The position numbers and the translations under genes are program-made. Positions 9,703 to 20,275 of a stretch of 64,000 bases of DNA are shown here, in pieces. Every line of letters begins with the position of its first letter. Position 1 is the first letter of the stretch. Source of the stretch: Anaerolineales bacterium (GTDB lineage Bacteria; Chloroflexota; Anaerolineae; Anaerolineales; RBG-16-64-43); NCBI GenBank assembly GCA_049511715.1, contig JBEKXU010000002.1, positions 100,994 to 164,993 of the forward strand, in the 5' to 3' direction. Below the pieces are notes generated by a model, which had not been told where the DNA came from, did no database searches, and worked only from the letters and a program-made list of their open reading frames with translations.

Positions 9703-10857
9703 TCAGGCTGTTTTGAGGATGTGGGTGGCAACCAAGGCGCCTGAGCCGCCAATGTTCAGGGCCATGCCTACCCGGGCCCGCTCCAACTGGTTGGCCCCGG
9801 CCTCTCCCCGCAATTGCTGGACGACTTCGACGATCTGGTACATCCCTGTGGCCCCGACGGGATGGCCGCGGGCCTTGAGACCTCCCTGGGTCGCGATTGG
9901 GAGCGAGGCATTCAAGCGGATCCTGCCCTCCAGGCCGAGCCGGGGGGCCTGCCCGCGCTCGGCAAACCCGCAGGCCTCCAGCGAGAGCGCGCTCAGGATG
10001 CTGAAGGCATCATGTAGCTCGAAGAAGTCGATTTGGGCGGGCTGAAGGCCGGCTTGGTCGTAGGCCTTGCGAGCCGATTGAAAGGCGGCGAGGAGAAAGA
10101 GGGGATCCTTGCGATCGTGAACCGCCAGGGAATCCGTGGCTACTCCCGACCCGGCGACCACCACGCGGGGGCGCGGTCCGCCGGCCACCCGCTCGGCCGG
10201 GACCAGAATTGCCGCCGCGGCGCCATCGCCGATGGGCGAGGCATCCAGCAGGTTAATGGGGTCGCAGACCATGCGTGCGTGAGCGTAGTCCCGTTCTGTG
10301 ATCGGCTCCTGCAGCCGCGCAAACGGATTGCGGGCTCCATTCGCATGCGCATTGATGGAGAAGGGCGCAAAGTCCGTGTGCTTCCAGCCGAATTCATGCA
10401 TGTAGCGCTGCATGAGCAGCGCATTGAGGCCGACGAAGGTGACGCCCTGGGCGGACTCGTAGTCCGCGTCCGCGGCGGTGGCCAGAGCCGCCGTCGTCTC
10501 GGCGGCTGAGGTCTCGGTCATCTTCTCCGCGCCGAGGGCCAGGGCCACGTCCACGGCGCCCGAGGCAACCGCCAGCCAGGCCAGGCGAAAAGCGGCGGCC
10601 CCGGAAGCGCAGGCCCCTTCGACCTTGTAGGCCTCTACCGGTTTTTGTCCGAGCCAGTCGGCGATCAGGGCTCCCAGGTTCTCCTGCCGGGCGACGATGC
10701 CGGAAAGCATGTTGCCGACGAAGATCGCCTCCACCCGCTCCAGGCCCGCATCCCGCAGCGCGGCCAATCCCGCTTCCGTGGCGAGATCGCGCAGCGAGTG
10801 CTCCCAGTGCTCCGCGACGGACGTCTGGCCGATACCGAGAACCGCAACCTCGCGCAT
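9703..10857 (-). CDS. Archaeal/SCP-x-type acetoacetyl-CoA thiolase (mevalonate pathway)
   Basis: The nucleophile motif is VEGACASGAAAF, followed by GAEKM and GGLKARGHPVGATG. It lies in a cluster with DUF35 and HMG-CoA synthase genes. Confidence 0.85.
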   Translation of the reverse strand: MREVAVLGIGQTSVAEHWEHSLRDLATEAGLAALRDAGLERVEAIFVGNMLSGIVARQENLGALIADWLGQKPVEAYKVEGACASGAAAFRLAWLAVASGAVDVALALGAEKMTETSAAETTAALATAADADYESAQGVTFVGLNALLMQRYMHEFGWKHTDFAPFSINAHANGARNPFARLQEPITERDYAHARMVCDPINLLDASPIGDGAAAAILVPAERVAGGPRPRVVVAGSGVATDSLAVHDRKDPLFLLAAFQSARKAYDQAGLQPAQIDFFELHDAFSILSALSLEACGFAERGQAPRLGLEGRIRLNASLPIATQGGLKARGHPVGATGMYQIVEVVQQLRGEAGANQLERARVGMALNIGGSGALVATHILKTA

Positions 10858-10875
10858 GGGCGGCTGGGCCGGGTC

Positions 10876-11277
10876 TCAAACGGCCGCGAGTACCGGGCGG
10901 AACTTGTAGCCGTACTGGATCAGACCTTCTTCGCCCTCGGCGCGCAGCTTGCGGGTCACCATCTCTACCGGCAAGCCGATCCGCAGCTCCCGGGGGTCCA
11001 CATCCGTGATCTGGGCCGTGACCAGCGGTCCTTCGGCGAGCTTGACCAGGGCGATGGCATAGGGCGCCTGGGTTTCATAGCCGCTGGGTGCGTCGTGAAT
11101 CACCGTGAACGAGTAGACCTCGCCCTGACCGCTGAAGCTGAACCGCGACTGGGTGGCCCGGCCGCATTCGGGGCAAATGTCCCGCGGCGGGAAGATCTTG
11201 GCGTGACAGTGCTCGCACTGCTCGCCCACCAGTCCGTAGCGCTGCTGTCTCAGTCTCCAATTGCGTGGGATATCCAT
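10876..11277 (-). CDS. DUF35 Zn-ribbon/OB-fold protein (scaffold of the thiolase/HMG-CoA synthase complex)
   Basis: Zn ribbon CEHCHAKIFPPRDICPECG followed by an OB-fold tail. It sits between the thiolase and HMGS genes, as in archaea. Confidence 0.8.
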   Translation of the reverse strand: MDIPRNWRLRQQRYGLVGEQCEHCHAKIFPPRDICPECGRATQSRFSFSGQGEVYSFTVIHDAPSGYETQAPYAIALVKLAEGPLVTAQITDVDPRELRIGLPVEMVTRKLRAEGEEGLIQYGYKFRPVLAAV

Positions 11278-11295
11278 AAACCTCCTGGGCGCTCT

Positions 11296-12435
11296 CTACT
11301 GGCGCAACTTCCCGCGGAAGCGCGCATAGAGGGCGTAGTCGATTTCTTTGCGGCGGGCCAGATAGTCCCGGGTGCGGGCCGCCAACCCCTGACGGCTCGG
11401 CAGGGCCTCCGTCACTCGCAGGCTGAAGGCGTCTGACCCGGCGCCCGAGCCGAAGGAGACGACCAGAAGCCGGTCTCCCGGTTCCGCTTCGTCGAGAACG
11501 GCCGTCAGGCCGATCAGGGTGGCTCCGGCATAAGTGTTCCCGATCTGCGGCACCAGCAGCCCCGCGCGGATCTGTTCCCGCGTAAAGCCCAGATCGACCG
11601 CAACGCGCTGCGGGAACTTGGTGTTGGGCTGGTGGAATACCGCGTGCCGGTAGTCGCAGGGCTGGAGCCCTAGGGCCGCCATCAGTTCGCGGGCGGCGGC
11701 TTCGCTGTGCTTGAAATAGGCGGGCTCCCCCGTGAAACGCTGGCCGTGCTGCGGATAGGCCGCCTCCGCCCGGCGCCAGAAGTCCGGGGTATCCGTCACG
11801 TACGAATACGAGGCTTCGATCACGGCCAACGACTCATCGGCCGGACCCACGACCAGGGCCGCCCCCCCCGCTCCTGCCGTGTACTCCAACGCATCACCCG
11901 GCCGCGCCTGTGCCGTATCCATGCCGATGGCGATGGCGTAAGGGACCATTCCTGAGCCCACCAGTCCGATCGCGGCCTGGAGCGCCTCGGTGCCGGCCTT
12001 GCAGGCGAACTGCCAATCGGCCGCCAGCAGGCTGGGAGAGGCGCCGATCGCCTCGGCCACGATGGTGGAGGTTGGTTTGACGGCGTAGGGATGCGATTCC
12101 GATCCCACCCACAGGGCCCCGATCTGGCTGGCCGGGATCCGGGCACGGGCCAGCGCATTGCGCGCCGCCTCCACGGCCATGGTTACGACGTCCTCGTCCA
12201 GCCCGGCCACGGACTTCTCCTGAACCGGTAGCGGGGCCGCCCCGTCGCTCCACACTCGGGCCACCTCCCGGGCGGGCAGCCGGTATCGGGGCAGGTAGGC
12301 GCCGTAGCCCAAGATGCCCACCGGATGGGACGGCCGCATCGCTCGCCCCAGAGGACGGGCTGCGGCCTGTGGGCTTGGCGCAGAGGTTTGGACCGCCGGA
12401 CTTGCGCTTCGGTTCCCTTCCACCCTCGTTTCCAA
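11296..12435 (-). CDS. Hydroxymethylglutaryl-CoA synthase (archaeal type)
   Basis: [24 protein letters not shown], the FACKAGT active-site Cys region, HQPN and [12 protein letters not shown] at 12435 has a GGAGAGG SD. ATG at 12339 would give the usual ~347 aa. Confidence 0.85.
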
Positions 12436-12470
12436 TTCCTGCCTCTCCAGGACGGCGCCCAGGACGGCTC

Positions 12471-13751
12471 CTACTTTCCCGAACGGTGGAGCAATTCCTG
12501 TGCCCGGTCAATTCTCACGGAACCCTCGCGAACCATCTGCTCGGCAATGGTCCCAACCGCCTCGCCCTCCGCGCCCGCGGCCATGGCCACTTGGCGCGCG
12601 TGCAGGGACATGTGGCCGCGCTGGATTCCCTCGGTGGCCAGCGCCCGCAAGGCCGCCAGGTTCTGGGCCAAGCCGACGGCGGCGATAATCTCCTCCAGCT
12701 CGCGGGCACTGCTGACGCCCAGGATCTTTAGGGAAAGTCTGGCCAGGGGATGCACCTGACTCGCCCCGCCGACGATGCCCACGGCCAGGGGAAGCTCGAG
12801 CGTTCCGGACAGGTTCCCCTGGGGATCGCGTTCCCACGTTGAGAGCGAGGTATATCGCCCCGACCGAGCCGCATAGGCATGGGCCCCGGCTTCGACTGCC
12901 CGCCAGTCATTCCCCGTAGCGATCACCAGGGCATCGATCCCGTTCAGGATGCCCTTGTTGTGAGTGGCGGCGCGATAGGGGTCGCAGGCGGCGAAGGCCC
13001 AGGCCTCCAGGATTCCGTCGCGCACGCGCTCCCCCGAGTAGCGCTCGAAGGCAAGGCCCTCCACCGGGATCCGGCAACGGGCCCGGGCCAGGCGGCGATC
13101 GGCCAGGTTCGAAAGGATCCGCAAATGGACGCGCCCTCCCGTGATCCGCTCGAGTTCCGGGGCGAGCCTCTCGCAAGCTGTGTTGACCGAATTGGCCCCC
13201 ATGGCGTCGCGGACATCCCAGAGGAGGTGGACCACCAGAAAGGGACCGATGGGCGAGTTCTTGATCTCGCGGATCTCCAGCCCGCGGGCGCCCCCTCCGA
13301 GCCCCAGCAGCATGGGATCGGTCTGATTGGCAACCTCGAGAAGGTGATCTCGGTTCTCGAGCAGCTTCGCTTGCGCGAGCTGGAGGTCGTCCAGGTCCAG
13401 GAGTTGAATCTGACCGATCATCACGGGGTCGTCCGCTTCGGCCTGGAACCCTCCTGTGGCGCGCGCCAGTTTGGCCATGAAGGAGGCTCCCGCCACCACC
13501 GAGGGCTCCTCAATGACCATCGGGACAAGCATCTCCCGGCCGTTGACCACAAAGTTCGTGGCAAATCCGAGCGGCAGCGAGAAGACGCCGGCGACGTTCT
13601 CGATCATCTGGTCCGCCTGCGAGGGATCCAACCCGCCGCTGCGGAAGGCCTGGCCGGCCTGCGCCTCAAAGCCGAACTGGGCGCAGACTGTCTCCAGCCG
13701 CTTCTGCCAGGGCTGGTTGTAGAAGCCGGGCAAGCGGGAACTCAGGGGCAT
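12471..13751 (-). CDS. HMG-CoA reductase (class II-like)
   Basis: [44 protein letters not shown] and GIVGG motifs. ATG at 13751 ([11 protein letters not shown]) gives ~426 aa. Confidence 0.85.
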
Positions 13752-14509
13752 TATGGCGAATCTTTCTTTCCGTTCCTTGCGCCTTGGACAGACTTGAAGA
13801 AAAGGCAAGATGAAACATCACAGTACTCGGCCCCGCCTAGCAATTGCTCTCAGGGTCCCCGCCCAGCAGGGATAAAGCGCTTGTTTCAGGAGCCTGAGAG
13901 GAAATGAGGGAGCTTGGGAAGGGCGACCCGAAAGGTGCCAAGTATCCTCAATGATGCCTGCCATCAGCTTTGAAAGCCGACCGGGGCGAAAACGCGGTCA
14001 AGTCGCCATGAGAAGACTGGCTCCTTAGGGATCACACGGACCGGTGTCGTCGGAGATGTGTGCCTCCCAGACCTCATCAGAGAAAAGGATATGGCCTTGA
14101 CTGCTCGGCAGGGTCAGGGCCGTCCCCGTCGAGGCGGACCAAGACCAGCCCGCGGATGGTCCTAAGCCGAGAATCGGGGAACGGAGCAGGGCACGAAGCT
14201 TGCATGGGCTGGCAGGTGCTCACTTGCAATGGCCAGCTTGGTTCCGCTCCAGCCGGCGGAGATGGCGTCCGGAGGCAGAGGGAGGACTCGGCGATGCTCC
14301 TGGGGCACCGGCCAAGAACGTTTCCGCAGTGTGAATTTATTGTTGGGGCAGCGTGAAAGGCCGGGCGCATTCTGGCAAGATCGGTGCGCTTCCGGTATCC
14401 AGGCCGGAGGCACCAATCTCTCTCCTATAATGCCGGCAGAACACAAGGCGGGGAAGCCGCCCCACACGTCGGCCGAATTCATTGGGTTCACGAGGAACAG
14501 GAGAAAAAC

Positions 14510-14872
14510 ATGTTCACACGAAGGATGCTAACCATTGTCGCCACCGTGGCTGTCTCGTTGGTGTTTGCCACGGCCGCCTTTGCCTTTGCGGCGGCAAACA
14601 CCGTGCCTGCGACGACTTCGGGCAGCGGCTCGAATACCATCAGCGGGTACACGATTACTAATGTCAGCTACGGTCTGGACACGACCACCCCTACGAATAT
14701 CGATACCGTGACCTTCACCCTCAGCCCCGCGGCCGCGACGACTGTGAAGATCCAGTTGGTGACCGGAGGCTCTTGGTACAGTTGCACCGATTCGACAGGC
14801 AGTGTGTCCTGCACGACAACGGGCGCAACCGTGGCCGCGGCCAATAGCCTCACGGTGGTTGCCAGTCAGTAG
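14510..14872 (+). CDS. Small secreted Thr/Ser-rich protein with SipW/TasA-like leader (candidate substrate 1)
   Basis: ATG at 14510 lies 8 nt after GGAG. The leader is MFTRRMLTIVATVAVSLVFATAAFAFAAANTVPATT. The mature part is beta-rich with 2 Cys. It sits just upstream of the SipW-like peptidase gene. Confidence 0.7.
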   Translation: MFTRRMLTIVATVAVSLVFATAAFAFAAANTVPATTSGSGSNTISGYTITNVSYGLDTTTPTNIDTVTFTLSPAAATTVKIQLVTGGSWYSCTDSTGSVSCTTTGATVAAANSLTVVASQ

Positions 14873-15039
14873 TGAGTTGTCCATCCGGCTCCCCGAGCTG
14901 GAGCGGAGGTTGCCGTCGCGCAACGGAGGCCCGGCGATGGCGCAGGCGGCTTGCTCACGGCCTACTCCCTCTACAATCCGCAAGGAGGAAGCCGTGAGCG
15001 AATTGTGTCTGGGAGCGCCTGTTCAATGGAATAGACCGC

Positions 15040-17409
15040 ATGAGGAAGTATCGCCGGTGGTACGGCATCGTCCTTGGGGCCTGCTGCCTCGTCTTGCTGG
15101 TTGCGGCTTGGCTGGTTTTTGCTCCCGTTCCTTTCGGCGGCCAGTCGAGCTATGTGATCGTAACCGGCAACAGCATGGACCCCATGTACCCGCCGGGCGA
15201 CCTGGTGATTGTCCGGGAAGAGCCCCACTACCAGGTCGGAGATGTCGTCGCCTACTTCGACGGCCAGCTGAACCGATACGTCATTCATCGCATCGTCGCG
15301 CAAGACGGCAACCGGTTCACCCTCAAGGGAGATCACAACGGCTGGACCGACTCGGATCAGCCCCTGGCCAGCCAGATCATCGGCAGGGCCTGGATTCAAT
15401 TACCCGGTCTCGGCCCGGGCGTGCAGGCCGTGCGCACCCCGCTGGCGATGGCTCTCCTGGCCGTCCTGGTGGGTGTGCTCCTGGTAACCGCCCTGCGGGC
15501 TTCTCCGCCGCGAAAACAAGGGGGGAGATTCTTGAAGCGAAAAAGTGGTTTTGAACAGAGTCTGGTTCTCGGGAGACTGGCGGAGGCGAAGGAGGGGATC
15601 GTCTTTGCCGCGGCCGTCCTCGGCGCGGCCTCGATTCTGCTGGGTGTCTTCGCCTTCACCCGGCCGCTCAAGGTGACGGAGGCCGATAACCTGAAATACA
15701 ACCAGGTCGGTGCCTTTGGCTACGGGGCGCCCGCACCGGCCGGGGTCTATGACACCCCCATGATCCAATCAGGCGAACCGGTCTATCCGTCCCTGACCTG
15801 CGGGATCACTGTGGATTTCGGTTACGCCCTGGTCGCGGATGCGCCCATCTCGGCCGGGGGCTCCTATCGCCTCACAGCTCAGGTAAGCGACCCCGCGGGC
15901 TGGCAGAGGACCCTGCCGCTGCAGCCGGAGACCGCCTTTTCGGGAGACCATTTCACCACCTCAGGCCAGCTCGACCTGTGTGAGATTCAAAACTTGGTGG
16001 CGGCCAAAGAGTCGATCACAGGAGACAAGCAGCCGATCTACATGGTGAAGGTCACTCCCCAGGTCGCTGTCCAGGGGACGATCGGCGGACGTCCTTTGAA
16101 CGACAGCTTTGCTCCGGCCTTGACCTTCCAGCTGGACGCACAGGAGCTCCACTTGGTACAGCCCGACTCACTGACGAACCCTCTGGCCCCGACCAAGGCA
16201 GGGGTGCTTCCGGAGTCTCTCACGGCAGCCAACACCTTTTCCATTTTTGGGGGGAACCTGCCGGTCGGGGCCGCCCGGCGCATCTCGTTGGCAGGTTTCA
16301 GCCTCGCCCTCGTGTGCCTCGGTCTTTTCGCCGTGGGTCTGCTCTACGCCGTGCGCAGGGATCCGGCGGCCCTGGTCGACTTCAAGTACGGCCCGCTGTT
16401 GGTGGGCGTGGGCCAAGGCCAACTGCCGACTCCGGGCCCGCGGGTGGTCGAAATGGCCTCCATCGATGACTTGGCCAAACTGGCGGACCGGGAAGGATAC
16501 CTGATCCTGCACGAACCGGGCGATGGCTGCGACCGCTATGTGGTCCAGGTCGGCGAGGTGACCTACCGCTTCACCTGGGTTCAACCCCAGGCCGCGCCCT
16601 TGCTGGCAAGCCCGCCGGTGGTGGAAAGCGAGCTCCGGGCAGCACTCGCCGCCGGTCAGTTCGAGGTTTACTATCAGCCCATTCTCTCGCTCGACAGTGG
16701 AAAGGTCACCGCCGTGGAGGCGCTGCTGCGCTGGAACCACCCTGAACGGGGGATCCTTCCAGCCATGGAATTCATGGCCGCAGCGGAGGAAACGGGGTTC
16801 ATCGTCTCCCTTGGGAGCTGGGCCCTGCGCACCGCGTGCTTGCAGCTCAAAGCCTGGAAAGCGCAAGGGCTCCCGGCCCTCTCCCTATTGGTGAATGTCT
16901 CTACCCGCCAGCTCAAGGAGGGCCTGAGCGATGTGGTGGCCGAGATTCTTCGTGAGGGCGATCTGGAGCCTGAGCGCCTGCACCTAGAGATTCGCGAGGA
17001 AAGCCTCCTGGAGGATCCGGAGGCGCTGGGACCCAAGCTTCAGGAGCTCCGGGATCTGGGGGTGCACCTCACCCTGGACAACTATTGCGGCAAGTCGCCT
17101 CTGGATCTCCTGCGGCGCGTGCCCATCAGCGGCCTGAAGCTGGACTGGAGATCGGTGGAGAAGATAGCAGTCGACTCGGCCGAGGCTGCCGTTACGCGAG
17201 CCGCCGTGAGCGCGGCACATAGCATGGAACTGCAGGTCGGGGCCGAGGGTGTCGAGACCGAGGAGCAGCTGAACCTGCTCCGCTCCCAAAAGGTGGATGC
17301 CGTACAAGGCTACTTCCTGGGTCACCCGATGCCTGCGGAGCAGGCGGCCAGCCTGATCCGGGAGAAGATGGTCAAGCCGCGCAAGAGCCCGCGGTCGATA
17401 GTGAGCTAG
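15040..17409 (+). CDS. Fusion protein: SipW/archaeal-type S26 signal peptidase I + 4-TM body with ~230-aa outside domain + cytoplasmic linker + EAL domain
   Basis: S26B layout: TM1, GNSMDP (Ser45), VIHRIV (His83), KGDHNGWTDSD, TM2. Then TM3, a long extracytoplasmic segment and TM4. C-terminal EAL motifs: YYQP, VEALLRW, NVS, EIRE, KLD, AEGVE, QGY. Loop 6 is degenerate (LDNYCGKSPL). Confidence 0.8.
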   Translation: MRKYRRWYGIVLGACCLVLLVAAWLVFAPVPFGGQSSYVIVTGNSMDPMYPPGDLVIVREEPHYQVGDVVAYFDGQLNRYVIHRIVAQDGNRFTLKGDHNGWTDSDQPLASQIIGRAWIQLPGLGPGVQAVRTPLAMALLAVLVGVLLVTALRASPPRKQGGRFLKRKSGFEQSLVLGRLAEAKEGIVFAAAVLGAASILLGVFAFTRPLKVTEADNLKYNQVGAFGYGAPAPAGVYDTPMIQSGEPVYPSLTCGITVDFGYALVADAPISAGGSYRLTAQVSDPAGWQRTLPLQPETAFSGDHFTTSGQLDLCEIQNLVAAKESITGDKQPIYMVKVTPQVAVQGTIGGRPLNDSFAPALTFQLDAQELHLVQPDSLTNPLAPTKAGVLPESLTAANTFSIFGGNLPVGAARRISLAGFSLALVCLGLFAVGLLYAVRRDPAALVDFKYGPLLVGVGQGQLPTPGPRVVEMASIDDLAKLADREGYLILHEPGDGCDRYVVQVGEVTYRFTWVQPQAAPLLASPPVVESELRAALAAGQFEVYYQPILSLDSGKVTAVEALLRWNHPERGILPAMEFMAAAEETGFIVSLGSWALRTACLQLKAWKAQGLPALSLLVNVSTRQLKEGLSDVVAEILREGDLEPERLHLEIREESLLEDPEALGPKLQELRDLGVHLTLDNYCGKSPLDLLRRVPISGLKLDWRSVEKIAVDSAEAAVTRAAVSAAHSMELQVGAEGVETEEQLNLLRSQKVDAVQGYFLGHPMPAEQAASLIREKMVKPRKSPRSIVS

Positions 17410-17420
17410 ATGGAGGGACG

Positions 17421-17825
17421 GTGCACATGCTGGGATCCCGGATGATCAAACTCACGCTGCTCGGAGGGGCCGCGCTGTTGCTTCTGGCGGTGATCACCGC
17501 CTTCGCGGCCTCAAACTCCGTGCCTAAGACTCTTCTCACGAGGCAAAGTTTTGCGATCAACGCCAACAGCCTGAAACCGTCTGGGTGCGCGTCGCTCAAC
17601 TTGAGTGTCATCGTAACCGGATCCGGAACGATCACCCACAATGGATCTTCCAATGCGCTGATCCTGGGGAGTGCCGGCAACGATACCATCACGGGCGGCT
17701 CCGGAGATGACTGCATTCTGGGCGGGGGAGGCCACAACACCATCAACGGCAGACAGGGGACGAACGTCTGCTACGGCAACAAGACAGACACCTTCACGAA
17801 TTGTCAGACCATCATCTACTACTGA
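17421..17825 (+). CDS. Small secreted Cys-containing protein with matching leader and RTX-type GGxGxD repeats (candidate substrate 2)
   Basis: GGAGG at 17412-17416; start is GTG 17421 or ATG 17427. The leader ..LLLLAVITAFAASNSVPKT parallels the 14510 ORF. Ca-binding-type repeats read ITGGSGDDCILGGGGHNTINGRQG. Confidence 0.7.
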   Translation: MHMLGSRMIKLTLLGGAALLLLAVITAFAASNSVPKTLLTRQSFAINANSLKPSGCASLNLSVIVTGSGTITHNGSSNALILGSAGNDTITGGSGDDCILGGGGHNTINGRQGTNVCYGNKTDTFTNCQTIIYY

Positions 17826-17896
17826 TCCGGGCGGCGCCATCCCTGCCGCGGGGGGACGGCAGGGTGGGCGCGCCCCAAAGCTTGCTCCTGCAATCG

Positions 17897-17927
17897 AACG
17901 GTGCCGCCCGAGGCGGCACCGTTTTCG
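17897..17927 (+). terminator. Rho-independent terminator closing the 14.5-17.8 kb unit
   Basis: 11-bp perfect stem aacggtgccgc / gcggcaccgtt with a 5-nt loop, running into TTTT. Confidence 0.65.
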
Positions 17928-18006
17928 CATGGGTTGAGGCGCATGCCGTCACGGCCCCCGAAAGGGAATCCTGGGGAATGCGGGTCTCTTGTCGGGATGA
18001 GCTGGG

Positions 18007-18216
18007 TCAGTCGGAGCCCTGGGAGGGGGCGGGGGTTTTGGGGTGATCGCGGCGGTACCAGCCAGAGCCCTTGAAGAGGACGGTGGGGGCGGTGGAGCGG
18101 CGGTGGATGGGGCGATGGCCGTTGGGGCAGGGGACGTCCTGGGAGTGGGCCTGGAAGGGGAGGGTGAGCTCGAAGTCGAGGCCGCACTGGGGGCAAGTGT
18201 ATTAGTAGGTGGGCAT
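18007..18216 (-). pseudogene. FmdB-family CxxC zinc-ribbon protein with in-frame TAA at codon 5
   Basis: The minus strand reads ATG CCC ACC TAC TAA TAC ACT TGC CCC CAG TGC GGC = MPTY*YTCPQCG..FKGSGWY.., against a family consensus of MPxYEYxCxxCG. The stop is at 18202-18204. The second zinc knuckle is also degenerate (CPNGH). Confidence 0.5.
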
Positions 18217-18304
18217 GGTCGAACCTGAGGGTGGAATTGGAAAGAGCGGGGGAGGCCCCGGGTACGGATCCTGGGGTCTCTCCTGTGCTCGCGAAAGTGG
18301 CCGG

Positions 18305-18754
18305 TTATTTCTTGGCTTTGACGGTGATGGAGCGGGGCTTGACCTGCTCGGCCTTGGGCAGGGTCAGGACGAGGATTCCATCTTCGAAGTCGGCATGGGC
18401 CTTGTCGACATTGACGTCGGTGGGGAGGGTGACGGAGCGCTGGAAGGAGCCGAAGCGTCGTTCGCGGATGTGGTAGGTATGGGTTTTGTCTTCCTGGTCT
18501 TCGTGGACTTCGCCGCGCAGGTTGACGACGCCGTTGGTGACGGAGATCTGGAGGTCTTCGGCCTGGACGCCGGGCAGGGCGGCCTTGATGACGATCTCGT
18601 CGTCGGTCTGGTAGAGATCGAGGGCGGGAGTGCCGCTGCCGTCGAAGGCGGAGGAAGCGAAGGGTCGGATGAAGGCCTGGTCGAACATGCGGTCCATGAC
18701 ATCCCGCAGGCTGGTCATCTCCCCGAAGGGTTCCCATCGAATCAAGCTGGACAT
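18305..18754 (-). CDS. Small heat-shock protein (Hsp20/alpha-crystallin family)
   Basis: MSSLIRWEPFGEM.., alpha-crystallin core ALDLYQTDDEIVIKAALPGV...GVVNLRGE..RRFGSFQRSVTLP..DGILVLTLPK. Confidence 0.9.
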   Translation of the reverse strand: MSSLIRWEPFGEMTSLRDVMDRMFDQAFIRPFASSAFDGSGTPALDLYQTDDEIVIKAALPGVQAEDLQISVTNGVVNLRGEVHEDQEDKTHTYHIRERRFGSFQRSVTLPTDVNVDKAHADFEDGILVLTLPKAEQVKPRSITVKAKK

Positions 18755-18871
18755 GGTTTCATCTCCTAGATTGGAATGCGGGTAAACCGGTACAGGGTTC
18801 AGGATACGCGCAAGGCGTCAGAAAGTTACCAGAGGAGGGTAAGAGGATTGTAGGAGGGCGGGGGGAGGGGA

Positions 18872-20275
18872 TTAGCCCGGGAAAAGGATGGGGAGGGCCG
18901 CGGGGGCAAAGGAGGCGACCATGGAGCTGGAGAGGCAATTCTGGCGGCAGATTTGGGCGTAGAGCTGGGCGGAGGGGCGGGCGGTGCGCTGCTGGGTTTG
19001 GGGGTTGAGGGCCCACAGTCCGAAGCGCTGGGTCCAGCCGCGCTCCCACTCGAAATTATCGACCAGGGTCCAGTGCCAGTAGCCGCGGATGGGGAAGTTG
19101 GAGTTGAGGGCCTGCCAGAGTTTCTGGAGATGCTGGCAGAGGTATTTGGGGCGTAGGCGGTCCTCTCCGTCCTCGACGCCATTCTCGGTGACCAGGACGG
19201 GCAGTCCGAAACGGGAGGCCCAGCGCAGGGCGGCGGAAAAGCCGTCCGGGACGTTGGCGATGAAGCCGCCCGGGCTCAGTTCGGCCCGGGGAGGGAAGAA
19301 TCGGCGCCCGAAGAACTCCCCGGGCCGGCGCAGGTCAAAGGCGACTCGGTCGGTGGTGTAGTAGTTCAGTCCGAAGAAGTCCTGGGTGCCGCGCGCCTCG
19401 GGAATCGCCTGCTCGCCAAGCAGGAGCGGCAGCCGGCCGCTCCAGAGCGCGCGGGGGAAAGCTTCATTGAAAAGACGGGACTGCAGGCGGGCCACGAGGT
19501 GGTCCAGGGGTGAGGCAGAGTCGGGCTGGATCCCGCGGAAATGGTGGGCGACGCCGACCTGGGAGCCGGGAGCCAGCTCATGAATGGCGCGGTAAGCCCG
19601 CGCATGGGCACGGACCATGTTGCCCATCACCCGGAACGCGGCACCCGGGTCTTGCTTCCCGGGAGGGAAGAGGCCTTCGAGGTAGGCCTCGAAGACATAA
19701 ACGTTCGGCTCATTGAGGGTGCACCAAAGATCGACTTGGCCCGCGAGCGCCGCCGCGACTTTCCGCGCAAAGGCCTCAAATCGCAGGATCACCTCCTCGT
19801 TCTCCCAGCCTCCCTGCTCGGCCAGCCAACGGGGATTGGTGAAGTGGTGCAGCGTGACCATCGGGCGCAGCGACCGCTGCGCCATTCCCGCCACAATCTC
19901 ACGGTACTGGGCCAGCGCCTGCTCGTCCCAAATTCCAGGCCTGGGTTCGATGCGGCTCCACTCGACGGACAGGCGGTGAGTGTTTTGGGCGCCCTCCGCC
20001 GCGCGATCCAGGTCCTCCGCCCAGCGCCCTCCCCACCAGTCGCAAGCTAACCCGGAGCGATCTCCCTCAGAGATGTGACCCGGGTGCTGCTCCCAGTCCC
20101 ACCAATCATTGCCTTTATTGTTGCCTTCCACTTGGTGGGAGGAGGTCGCGGTTCCCCACAGGAAGCCGGGCGGGAAGTGCAAGCTGGCCTCAATCAAGTG
20201 CTTCCTCACGCTGGGAGGGGGAGCCGGTCGCCGTTGGGGCGGCCGAGGCGCGGCAGGCCACACAGGCGAACTCAC
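18872..20275 (-). CDS. GH1 beta-glucosidase
   Basis: FPPGFLWGTATSSHQVEGN, TLHHF, the TLNEP acid/base motif and the VTENG nucleophile motif. The annotated start overlaps the GNAT 3' end by 86 nt; GTG at 20209 is more likely. Confidence 0.85.
   Translation of the reverse strand: MSSPVWPAAPRPPQRRPAPPPSVRKHLIEASLHFPPGFLWGTATSSHQVEGNNKGNDWWDWEQHPGHISEGDRSGLACDWWGGRWAEDLDRAAEGAQNTHRLSVEWSRIEPRPGIWDEQALAQYREIVAGMAQRSLRPMVTLHHFTNPRWLAEQGGWENEEVILRFEAFARKVAAALAGQVDLWCTLNEPNVYVFEAYLEGLFPPGKQDPGAAFRVMGNMVRAHARAYRAIHELAPGSQVGVAHHFRGIQPDSASPLDHLVARLQSRLFNEAFPRALWSGRLPLLLGEQAIPEARGTQDFFGLNYYTTDRVAFDLRRPGEFFGRRFFPPRAELSPGGFIANVPDGFSAALRWASRFGLPVLVTENGVEDGEDRLRPKYLCQHLQKLWQALNSNFPIRGYWHWTLVDNFEWERGWTQRFGLWALNPQTQQRTARPSAQLYAQICRQNCLSSSMVASFAPAALPILFPG

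Follow-up and report, generated by a model that had tools for sequence, protein, structure and literature searches.

A signal peptidase fused to DUF5305 and EAL domains in a three-gene cassette of Anaerolineae, a candidate for c-di-GMP-responsive protein maturation

Why would a signal peptidase and a domain of cyclic di-GMP (c-di-GMP) signalling be placed on one polypeptide? The question is raised by a locus in a 64,000-nucleotide stretch of DNA, here called the window, from the Anaerolineales bacterium assembly GCA_049511715.1 (contig JBEKXU010000002.1, positions 100,994 to 164,993). The listing of open reading frames (ORFs) contains, at 15040-17409 on the plus strand, a 789-aa ORF, just as an earlier note on this DNA had it. 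Its product is recorded at NCBI as MGA2110757.1, with the annotation "MAG: signal peptidase I [Anaerolineales bacterium]", where MAG stands for metagenome-assembled genome. The gene is flanked by two genes for small secreted proteins, see Table 1. We suggest that the 789-aa protein is a c-di-GMP-responsive, dedicated signal peptidase that matures these two co-encoded surface proteins. From the analysis below, we give this reading about an even chance of being correct, with the gating by c-di-GMP as a proposal.

The N-terminal module is recognised by two profiles. The NCBIfam equivalog model TIGR02228 (sigpep_I_arch, 'signal peptidase I, archaeal type') matches residues 13-151 with 62.1 bits (cut-off 51.85), and Pfam Peptidase_S24 scores 31.8 bits (cut-off 23.3). 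The motifs GNSMDP (residues 43-48, with Ser45), VIHRIV (81-86, with His83) and KGDHNGWTDSD (96-106) are found exactly at the residues given in the earlier note. In the alignment with human SEC11A/C, Ser45 corresponds to the serine of SGSMEP, His83 to the histidine of IVHRV and Asp98 to the aspartate of KGDNN, and in the Ser-to-Ala entry of SEC11A (9rjb) the residue opposite Ser45 is the one that was exchanged. The Ser/His layout of S26B peptidases, proposed earlier from the motifs, is thus borne out by both profiles and by the alignment. The candidate catalytic codons are 15172-15174 (Ser45), 15286-15288 (His83), 15331-15333 (Asp98) and 15349-15351 (Asp104). All four residues are unchanged in 14 out of 14 EAL-fused metagenomic homologues; among 75 members of the family no exception is seen for His83 and Asp98, and Ser45 and Asp104 reach a conservation of 90% or more. 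The conservation of these residues, together with the SEC11 alignment, speaks against a pseudo-peptidase, which was rejected on this ground.

Structurally, the best PDB matches found by Foldseek for the model of residues 1-530 are SEC11C and SEC11A (7p2q_A, E 7.5e-5, and 7p2p_A, E 2.8e-4, both with prob 1.0). The hydropathy scan and the model reveal four hydrophobic segments in the full protein (approximately residues 9-29, 134-154, 186-206 and 416-440), and the peptidase module consists of transmembrane (TM) helix 1, a catalytic beta-domain and TM2. From the flanking TM helices and the positive-inside loops, the catalytic domain is predicted to be located outside the membrane. The N-terminus is most likely a dedicated signal peptidase I of the SEC11/SipW type (S26B, Ser/His), with predicted cleavage activity.

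What follows the peptidase had been described as part of a sensor body with four TM helices. The four helices are present; however, TM1 and TM2 belong to the peptidase, and the region from TM3 to residue 514 is most probably a DUF5305-type module and not an unknown sensor. In the AlphaFold2 (AF2) model of residues 1-530 (predicted local distance difference test, pLDDT, 87.6), a helix (175-207) is followed by a beta region (211-408), another helix (409-440) and an alpha/beta region (442-514). This corresponds to TM3, an extracytoplasmic beta-sandwich of about 200 aa, TM4 and a conserved cytoplasmic alpha/beta domain with the motif IDDLAKLA. The outside segment is about 205 aa instead of the proposed 230 aa, and the cytoplasmic linker, thought to be about 130 aa, is reduced to about 90 aa, most of which (442-514) is the folded alpha/beta domain of DUF5305.

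The Pfam DUF5305 profile (PF17231) scores 19.9-20.2 bits on the window protein (cut-off 29), and this match covers the C-terminal 42 positions of the profile only. The same profile is matched by 69 of the 75 aligned homologues (best E 1e-19), and the modelled architecture agrees with the description of DUF5305 in bioRxiv 10.64898/2026.01.04.697558. In the archaeal Tat-fimbriae/AbpX systems, the DUF5305 protein TafG is the proposed accessory of the pilin-processing peptidase TafD, whose processing of TafA has genetic evidence, and a fusion of DUF5305 and signal peptidase I has already been noted in Anaerolinea thermophila (PMC11821415, PMC12337348, bioRxiv 10.64898/2026.01.04.697558). From the matches of the homologues, the model and this literature, it follows that the core is most probably a known but uncharacterised peptidase-accessory fusion. 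A dedicated peptidase like SipW, DUF5305 as an accessory and even the fusion of both can already be found in the recent literature, and the protein itself is databased as 'signal peptidase I'. No accessory subunit of the eukaryotic signal peptidase complex (SPC) is found among the top 50 Foldseek matches as a structural match of the DUF5305 beta-sandwich.

The two flanking genes encode the candidate substrates. The upstream gene has a GGAG ribosome-binding site and a precursor of 120 aa, whose leader consists of a basic n-region and a hydrophobic helix of about 22 residues and ends in AFAFAA-ANTVP (AANTVP at nt 14591-14608). The mature part, about 90-93 aa, is an immunoglobulin (Ig)-like beta-sandwich with two invariant cysteines. 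In its AF2 model (pLDDT 80) a helix (residues 2-29) and a disordered but highly conserved stretch (30-41) precede the beta-sandwich (47-119). All 352 homologues, which include Gaiellaceae and Acidobacteria MAG proteins, are annotated as 'hypothetical'. The family matches nothing in Pfam or NCBIfam, and neither do 62 of its members when searched against NCBIfam. Foldseek of the model against the PDB gives no match at E <= 0.001, only generic Ig-like folds at E > 0.5 with TasA not among the matches, and the profile search of the PDB returns only a weak match to neocarzinostatin (E 0.016).

The downstream protein is 134 aa when read from GTG 17421, while NCBI has 132 aa from ATG 17427 (MGA2110758.1). 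Of the two sizes proposed earlier, 120 aa is therefore exact and about 134 aa applies to the GTG start. The downstream leader, also a basic n-region and a hydrophobic helix (about 20 residues), ends in AFAASNSVP. The mature part of about 100 aa contains four cysteines and calcium-binding nonapeptide repeats at residues 75-108, matched in two stretches by Pfam HemolysinCabind (PF00353) with 35.6 bits (cut-off 23). A repeat of the GxxGxD type is present in 42 of 43 relatives. A search against PHROGs gives nothing meaningful.

The junction between leader and mature part is nearly invariant in both families, with the consensus (Y/F)A(F/Y)AA(A/S)NTVP upstream and A(V/I)AA(T/A/S)NTVP downstream. The leader and the AA(A/S/T)NTVP motif are all that the two proteins have in common; the remainder is unrelated. 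Within the window, the NTVP-type leader motif is limited to these two ORFs. As it is common to otherwise unrelated proteins, the motif is best interpreted as a signal for recognition or cleavage by a dedicated peptidase. The earlier impression of two cognate small proteins with hydrophobic leaders is supported by the common motif and by their conservation beside homologues. Substrates of the TasA, camelysin or TIGR04088 type were rejected, as no profile of these families or of the TIGR04088 leader matches the small proteins and no fold match is significant.

Is the arrangement of the three genes more than a coincidence in one genome? When one genome of each GTDB species is scanned, at least 565 relatives are obtained, and the best 80 loci were used as the census set. 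Without exception these are from Chloroflexota, mainly Anaerolineae. The upstream small gene is kept in 78 of the 80 loci and the RTX gene, directly downstream, in 76, in both cases adjacent to the peptidase gene and on the same strand. The wider gene neighbourhoods differ among related loci while the three-gene core stays. A three-gene arrangement found in 76-78 of 80 species-representative genomes is beyond chance, and the locus is best explained as a self-contained Anaerolineae cassette for secretion and maturation. The spacer between the upstream gene and the peptidase gene has a median length of 105 nt in the relatives (167 nt here), and in 50 of 76 loci the RTX gene overlaps with the stop of the peptidase gene or lies immediately against it. 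This pattern agrees with a first product made in abundance and a third one made stoichiometrically by translational coupling. The upstream protein is probably the abundant ('major') substrate.

The EAL fusion is real and not an artefact. An identical 789-aa protein is present on five contigs from four sources, and in 14 metagenomic homologues (33-72% identity) peptidase, DUF5305 and EAL follow one another without interruption, and the region of the junction is conserved. In the census with hidden Markov models, 18 of the 80 loci are EAL-fused, two are HD-GYP-fused and 60 are without an output domain; the 18 include a cultured isolate, Ornatilinea apprima P3M-1 (L025). Hence the three ORFs clearly co-occur, which the earlier note had asked, while the EAL domain is fused in 18 and absent in 60 of the loci. 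Taken together, the 14 metagenomic and 18 genomic fused orthologues span 33-73% identity, and an exhaustive profile search of 1.84 billion representatives at 50% identity finds about 35 full-length fusion clusters as well as fragments. The worry that a frameshift or misassembly had merged two genes is thereby removed.

The C-terminal position is also occupied by a second domain family. HD-GYP is found there in at least eight relatives (P0020, L019, L076, P0284, P0303, P0316, P0341, P0371). Three of these fusions were inspected: two of them, P0020 and L019, have a canonical domain, while that of L076 is degenerate, having lost the metal ligands. In the core tree P0020, its sole HD-GYP member, branches apart from the EAL group. 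The same protein has thus recruited c-di-GMP domains of two unrelated families. Neither GGDEF nor PilZ is seen at this position of the relatives, only EAL and HD-GYP.

Other C-termini were observed as well. Many relatives without EAL carry low-complexity cytoplasmic tails of 50-115 aa at the same position (L018, L023, L033-L035, L046, L056, L061, L066-L069, L080, L085, L087). The ends of the tails share the short conserved motifs EYVIxTGEIEF and, terminally, (V/I)LRKI(K/R)(I/L), which look like docking peptides for some partner. Among the proteins from the search of representatives, P0347 (791 aa) has a C-terminal region of about 280 aa after DUF5305 that has no Pfam match and could be an output domain of yet another kind, the third, and P0318 (664 aa) ends in a fragment of a DUF4096 transposase, probably from an insertion sequence or from read-through. 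In one long-read MAG (locus L016, 4001-6497), an EAL-fused orthologue is frameshifted into ORFs of 774 aa and 116 aa; this is probably a sequencing error, possibly a recent pseudogenisation. A distant cassette (L010 6001-7870 and L011 2129-3998, from the MAG assemblies GCA_037024515.1 and GCA_037024415.1) consists of a small NTVP-leader protein, a stand-alone SipW-type peptidase of 188 aa without DUF5305, and a small RTX protein. After its RTX gene, a 106-aa ORF corresponds to the C-terminal third of EAL only and may be the remnant of an adjacent EAL gene.

The nature of the EAL domain decides how the fusion could work. Pfam EAL (PF00563) matches residues 531-763 of the window protein with 198.6 bits (cut-off 31.3), and the EAL tripeptide (residues 560-562) is encoded at 16717-16725, so that the domain is genuine, at the place where it had been claimed. 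The closest solved relatives are active phosphodiesterases (PDEs), with the EAL domain of MorA as the best (E 2.5e-52). The residues were mapped to the catalytic set of RocR (E175, R179, N233, E265, E268, D295, D296, K316, E352, Q372), using alignment coordinates against solved EAL structures and residue roles which reportedly stem from the work of Rao et al. in 2008 and Tchigvintsev et al. in 2010. Kept in the window EAL are Glu560, Arg564, Asn619, Glu650, Glu653, Asp680, Lys700, Glu736, Glu739 and Gln756. It has nine of the ten residues of the RocR set, and retains the general base Glu736, every first-metal ligand and all residues with which c-di-GMP is bound in such domains. The tenth, the equivalent of D296 and second Asp of the DDFG motif, is replaced by Asn681 (17080-17082). 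In loop 6, which is reported to be essential for activity (PMC12943098), the sequence is NYCGKSPL compared to the canonical DFG(T/A)GYSS.

A similar tendency is seen across the 32 fused EALs. Conservation is complete (100%) at Q, E(EAL), R, N, K, E(GVE) and Q(QGY). At the position of RocR D296 only 12 of the 32 have Asp, and at the general-base position of E352 only 12 have Glu; both are intact in a single protein, that of Ornatilinea. Loop 6 deviates from the canonical form in 30 of 32, being shorter by one residue. As the ligand and first-metal residues are strictly kept, while the second-metal or general-base residues are systematically lost, sensing is favoured over turnover. By its residue pattern, the EAL domain is most likely a sensor of c-di-GMP, or else a phosphodiesterase of the slow 'trigger' type. 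Of the two functions left open earlier, sensing or turnover, sensing is the better supported, and turnover is weakened by Asn681 and the non-canonical loop 6. In this genome and in a subclade of the relatives, the EAL domain is thus attached, on the cytoplasmic side, to the alpha/beta domain of DUF5305 by a linker of about 15-25 residues that varies and is probably flexible.

From these observations the following mechanism can be proposed. The leaders of both small proteins, unusually long and similar to TM helices, would be removed by the peptidase at or just before A-x-A-A-(A/S/T)-N-T-V-P. Cleavage would release an Ig-like protein with one disulfide and a calcium-binding RTX protein for assembly at the cell surface. 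The ligand state of the EAL domain could be relayed to the peptidase via DUF5305, via oligomerisation, or both. The maturation of the two surface proteins would then track the c-di-GMP level of the cell, i.e. control from the inside out, in analogy to LapD/LapG.

Several points weigh against this mechanism. That the peptidase acts on the small proteins, and that it responds to c-di-GMP, is something we infer. Only PDE-type domains occur at the C-terminus and two of the three inspected HD-GYP domains look intact, so hydrolysis itself may be the selected function; the window EAL, short of one catalytic residue by a conservative change from Asp to Asn, may still hydrolyse c-di-GMP. A variable and probably flexible linker argues against a rigid allosteric coupling, and with 60 of 80 loci lacking a c-di-GMP domain, the domain is an optional add-on. 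Finally, as the small proteins have no significant structural match to a known fibre subunit, the assembly at the surface is a conjecture.

The PDE-type domains lead to the alternative that survives best, in which the signal runs in the opposite direction. EAL or HD-GYP would be a working phosphodiesterase governed from the extracytoplasmic side, by the occupancy of the peptidase with substrate or by the state of the DUF5305 beta-sandwich, so that export or assembly lowers the cellular or local c-di-GMP. The PDE-type domains at this position come from two unrelated folds, the best solved relatives such as MorA are active, the general base and the first-metal ligands of the window EAL are in place, and the Ornatilinea EAL looks intact, as do the two canonical HD-GYP fusions. 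However, 31 of the 32 fused EALs lack the second-metal Asp or the general-base Glu, loop 6 is shortened and non-canonical, and the HD-GYP fusion L076 is without metal ligands. With turnover as the output, one would not expect such losses to be tolerated, and we consider feedback of this kind rather unlikely.

A different possibility is that the EAL domain is only co-localised, tethered as a local c-di-GMP sink or as a platform for partners, with cleavage unaffected. This would agree with the variable, probably flexible linker and with the lack of the EAL domain in most relatives, and the disordered tails with short conserved motifs in a number of those relatives suggest a docking role for the C-terminus. 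On the other hand, it is precisely this protein that has acquired c-di-GMP domains from two different families, and the fusion is kept across orthologues down to 33% identity; both observations argue for a functional connection with the cassette. We regard mere co-localisation as improbable.

The peptidase-like domain could also be a non-catalytic chaperone or assembly factor that leaves the leaders uncut, like SipA/LepA of Streptococcus pyogenes, which is needed for pilus polymerisation. SipA (4n31) is indeed among the Foldseek matches. With Ser45, His83, Asp98 and Asp104 conserved and aligned to the catalytic motifs of SEC11, and with the score above the cut-off of TIGR02228, this is very improbable. 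That the fusion joins a peptidase gene and an EAL gene through an assembly error or a frameshift has practically no chance: nothing was found in its favour, L016 shows the opposite (a frameshift that splits off the EAL end), and the continuous ORF recurs in independent assemblies and sources, in the 18 GTDB species genomes including the isolate, and in the clusters at 50% identity, with a conserved junction region. The preferred reading remains a dedicated peptidase under possible control by c-di-GMP.

How does the cassette compare with known systems? In the tapA-sipW-tasA operon of B. subtilis, a Ser/His S26B peptidase is likewise encoded together with presumed secreted substrates; SipW is the ER/archaeal-type peptidase dedicated to TasA and TapA, the proteins of the biofilm fibres. 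In both proteins an N-terminal and a second TM helix flank the catalytic domain, and in both systems the substrates have a conserved motif at the junction of leader and mature part. However, SipW is only about 190 aa and contains neither DUF5305 nor a c-di-GMP domain, while the window protein has both. The substrates of SipW have the TasA fold and a TIGR04088-type leader, while here an Ig-like protein of about 93 aa and an RTX protein of about 100 aa share an AANTVP junction.

The archaeal Tafi/AbpX loci are similar in that TafD and TafG are found beside small secreted structural proteins. There, the two are separate genes and the substrates are donor-strand-exchange pilins of the TasA superfamily, while in the window the modules are fused and the substrates are from other, undescribed families. 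No nucleotide second-messenger domain is noted for the archaeal systems in PMC11821415, PMC12337348 and bioRxiv 10.64898/2026.01.04.697558, in contrast to the EAL/HD-GYP domains here. The eukaryotic SPC provides the closest solved structures of the catalytic domain (SEC11A/C, 7P2P, 7P2Q), with the same motif layout, and it combines a catalytic subunit with membrane-anchored accessory subunits as is proposed here. However, the SPC is a general peptidase without a signalling domain, while the window peptidase is read as dedicated.

For control from the inside out, the best functional analogy is LapD-LapG-LapA. In Pseudomonas fluorescens, the degenerate EAL domain of LapD senses c-di-GMP and controls the processing of the RTX-type, calcium-binding LapA across the membrane. 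LapD, a receptor of the GGDEF-EAL type, also contains HAMP and periplasmic domains; it is no protease but sequesters one, the cysteine protease LapG. LapA, a giant adhesin, leaves the cell through a type I system. Homology between the two systems is limited to the EAL domain. A membrane protease with a c-di-GMP-binding domain has also been predicted from sequence in Leptospira, LIC_20173 (PMC12943098). This uncharacterised protein belongs to the PrsW family, has a PilZ module and no described co-encoded substrates, and thus differs from the S26-EAL fusion.

The non-coding parts of the cassette are structured. At the 3' end a perfect 12-bp stem (17897-17908 / 17913-17924) is followed by a run of four T, and another strong hairpin is found at 17829-17875. 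The region has a minimum free energy (MFE) of -72.9 kcal/mol (z = -3.8), with 0 of 200 shuffles equally stable. Of the hairpin and T-tract described earlier at 17897-17927 the hairpin therefore holds, but the T-tract is only four T long, and because of this short run the hairpin was not called in the scan for consensus terminators. The hairpin with the 12-bp stem is probably the terminator, possibly a bidirectional one. The spacer after the upstream gene (MFE -65.9 kcal/mol, z = -2.2) may, as judged from its folding, serve for attenuation or processing and so set the stoichiometry of subunit to peptidase. A riboswitch or other RNA element was rejected, with no Rfam match at E <= 1 in 13700-18400. 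The sigma-70 promoter scan finds no promoter-like site, including in the roughly 700 nt of non-coding sequence (13809-14509) upstream of the cassette.

Table 1. Coordinates of the cassette, its modules and the neighbouring genes in the window.
Feature	Position	Strand	Basis
789-aa fusion gene (SEC11/SipW-type peptidase, DUF5305 module, EAL)	15040..17409	+	MGA2110757.1, profile matches
Upstream small secreted protein gene, 120-aa precursor	14510..14872	+	ORF and GGAG ribosome-binding site
Structured spacer, 167 nt, upstream small gene to peptidase gene	14873..15039	+	Folding energy
Signal peptidase I module, residues 13-151	15076..15492	+	TIGR02228, SEC11 alignment, Foldseek
DUF5305-type accessory module, residues 175-514	15562..16581	+	AF2 model, Pfam matches of homologues
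EAL domain, residues 531-763	16630..17328	+	Pfam EAL, MorA relative
Downstream small secreted RTX protein gene	17421..17825	+	Pfam HemolysinCabind, MGA2110758.1
Two strong hairpins closing the unit, before the convergent Hsp20 gene	17829..17927	+	Sequence, folding energy
Thiolase	9703-10857	-	Part of mevalonate-like set
Small OB-fold ChsH2/DUF35-like protein	10876-11277	-	Part of mevalonate-like set
Condensing-enzyme-like protein, maybe HMG-CoA synthase	11296-12435	-	Sole match ACP_syn_III_C
HMG-CoA reductase	12471-13808	-	Part of mevalonate-like set
Hsp20 gene	18305-18754	-	
GH1 beta-glucosidase gene	18872-20275	-	

The cassette has no further genes of its own beside it; its neighbours are a putative mevalonate operon upstream, on the opposite strand, and convergent Hsp20 and GH1 genes downstream. 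The mevalonate-pathway gene set (9703-13808, minus strand), divergent from the cassette, looks archaeal-type. A spike in GC skew (0.21, compared to about 0.02-0.1 elsewhere) at 18001-20000 spans the Hsp20 and GH1 genes, and the same segment contains several long, spurious Pro/Arg-rich ORFs on both strands.

In the searched literature, no fusion of an S26 peptidase and EAL is described, in line with the earlier note, which knew of no characterised one. Neither the EAL/HD-GYP extension, the NTVP-type leader nor the two substrate families were found there, and a direct coupling of c-di-GMP to a signal peptidase is not described. c-di-GMP controls matrix and adhesins through transcription, riboswitches, activation of glycosyltransferases and the release of adhesins by LapD/LapG. 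If EAL or HD-GYP regulates cleavage, the maturation of proteins at the membrane would be a further c-di-GMP checkpoint, and DUF5305 would gain a testable function, relaying the signal across the membrane within a dedicated peptidase complex. It can be speculated that c-di-GMP on the degenerate EAL domain (or on HD-GYP in sister lineages) switches the peptidase-DUF5305 complex on or off and gates the release of a two-component surface structure not described before, built of the Ig-like subunit of about 93 aa and the small RTX subunit, both with an NTVP end at the N-terminus. This would be the first second-messenger control of signal-peptide cleavage; we put this forward as a tentative possibility.

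The analysis exposes a very widespread three-gene cassette of Anaerolineae with two small secreted proteins that belong to no described family. As the cultured Ornatilinea apprima has the EAL-fused form, the hypothesis is testable in an isolate. Anaerolineae are filamentous and abundant in sludge, sediments and peat, and the cassette may contribute to the biology of their filaments, sheaths or aggregates.

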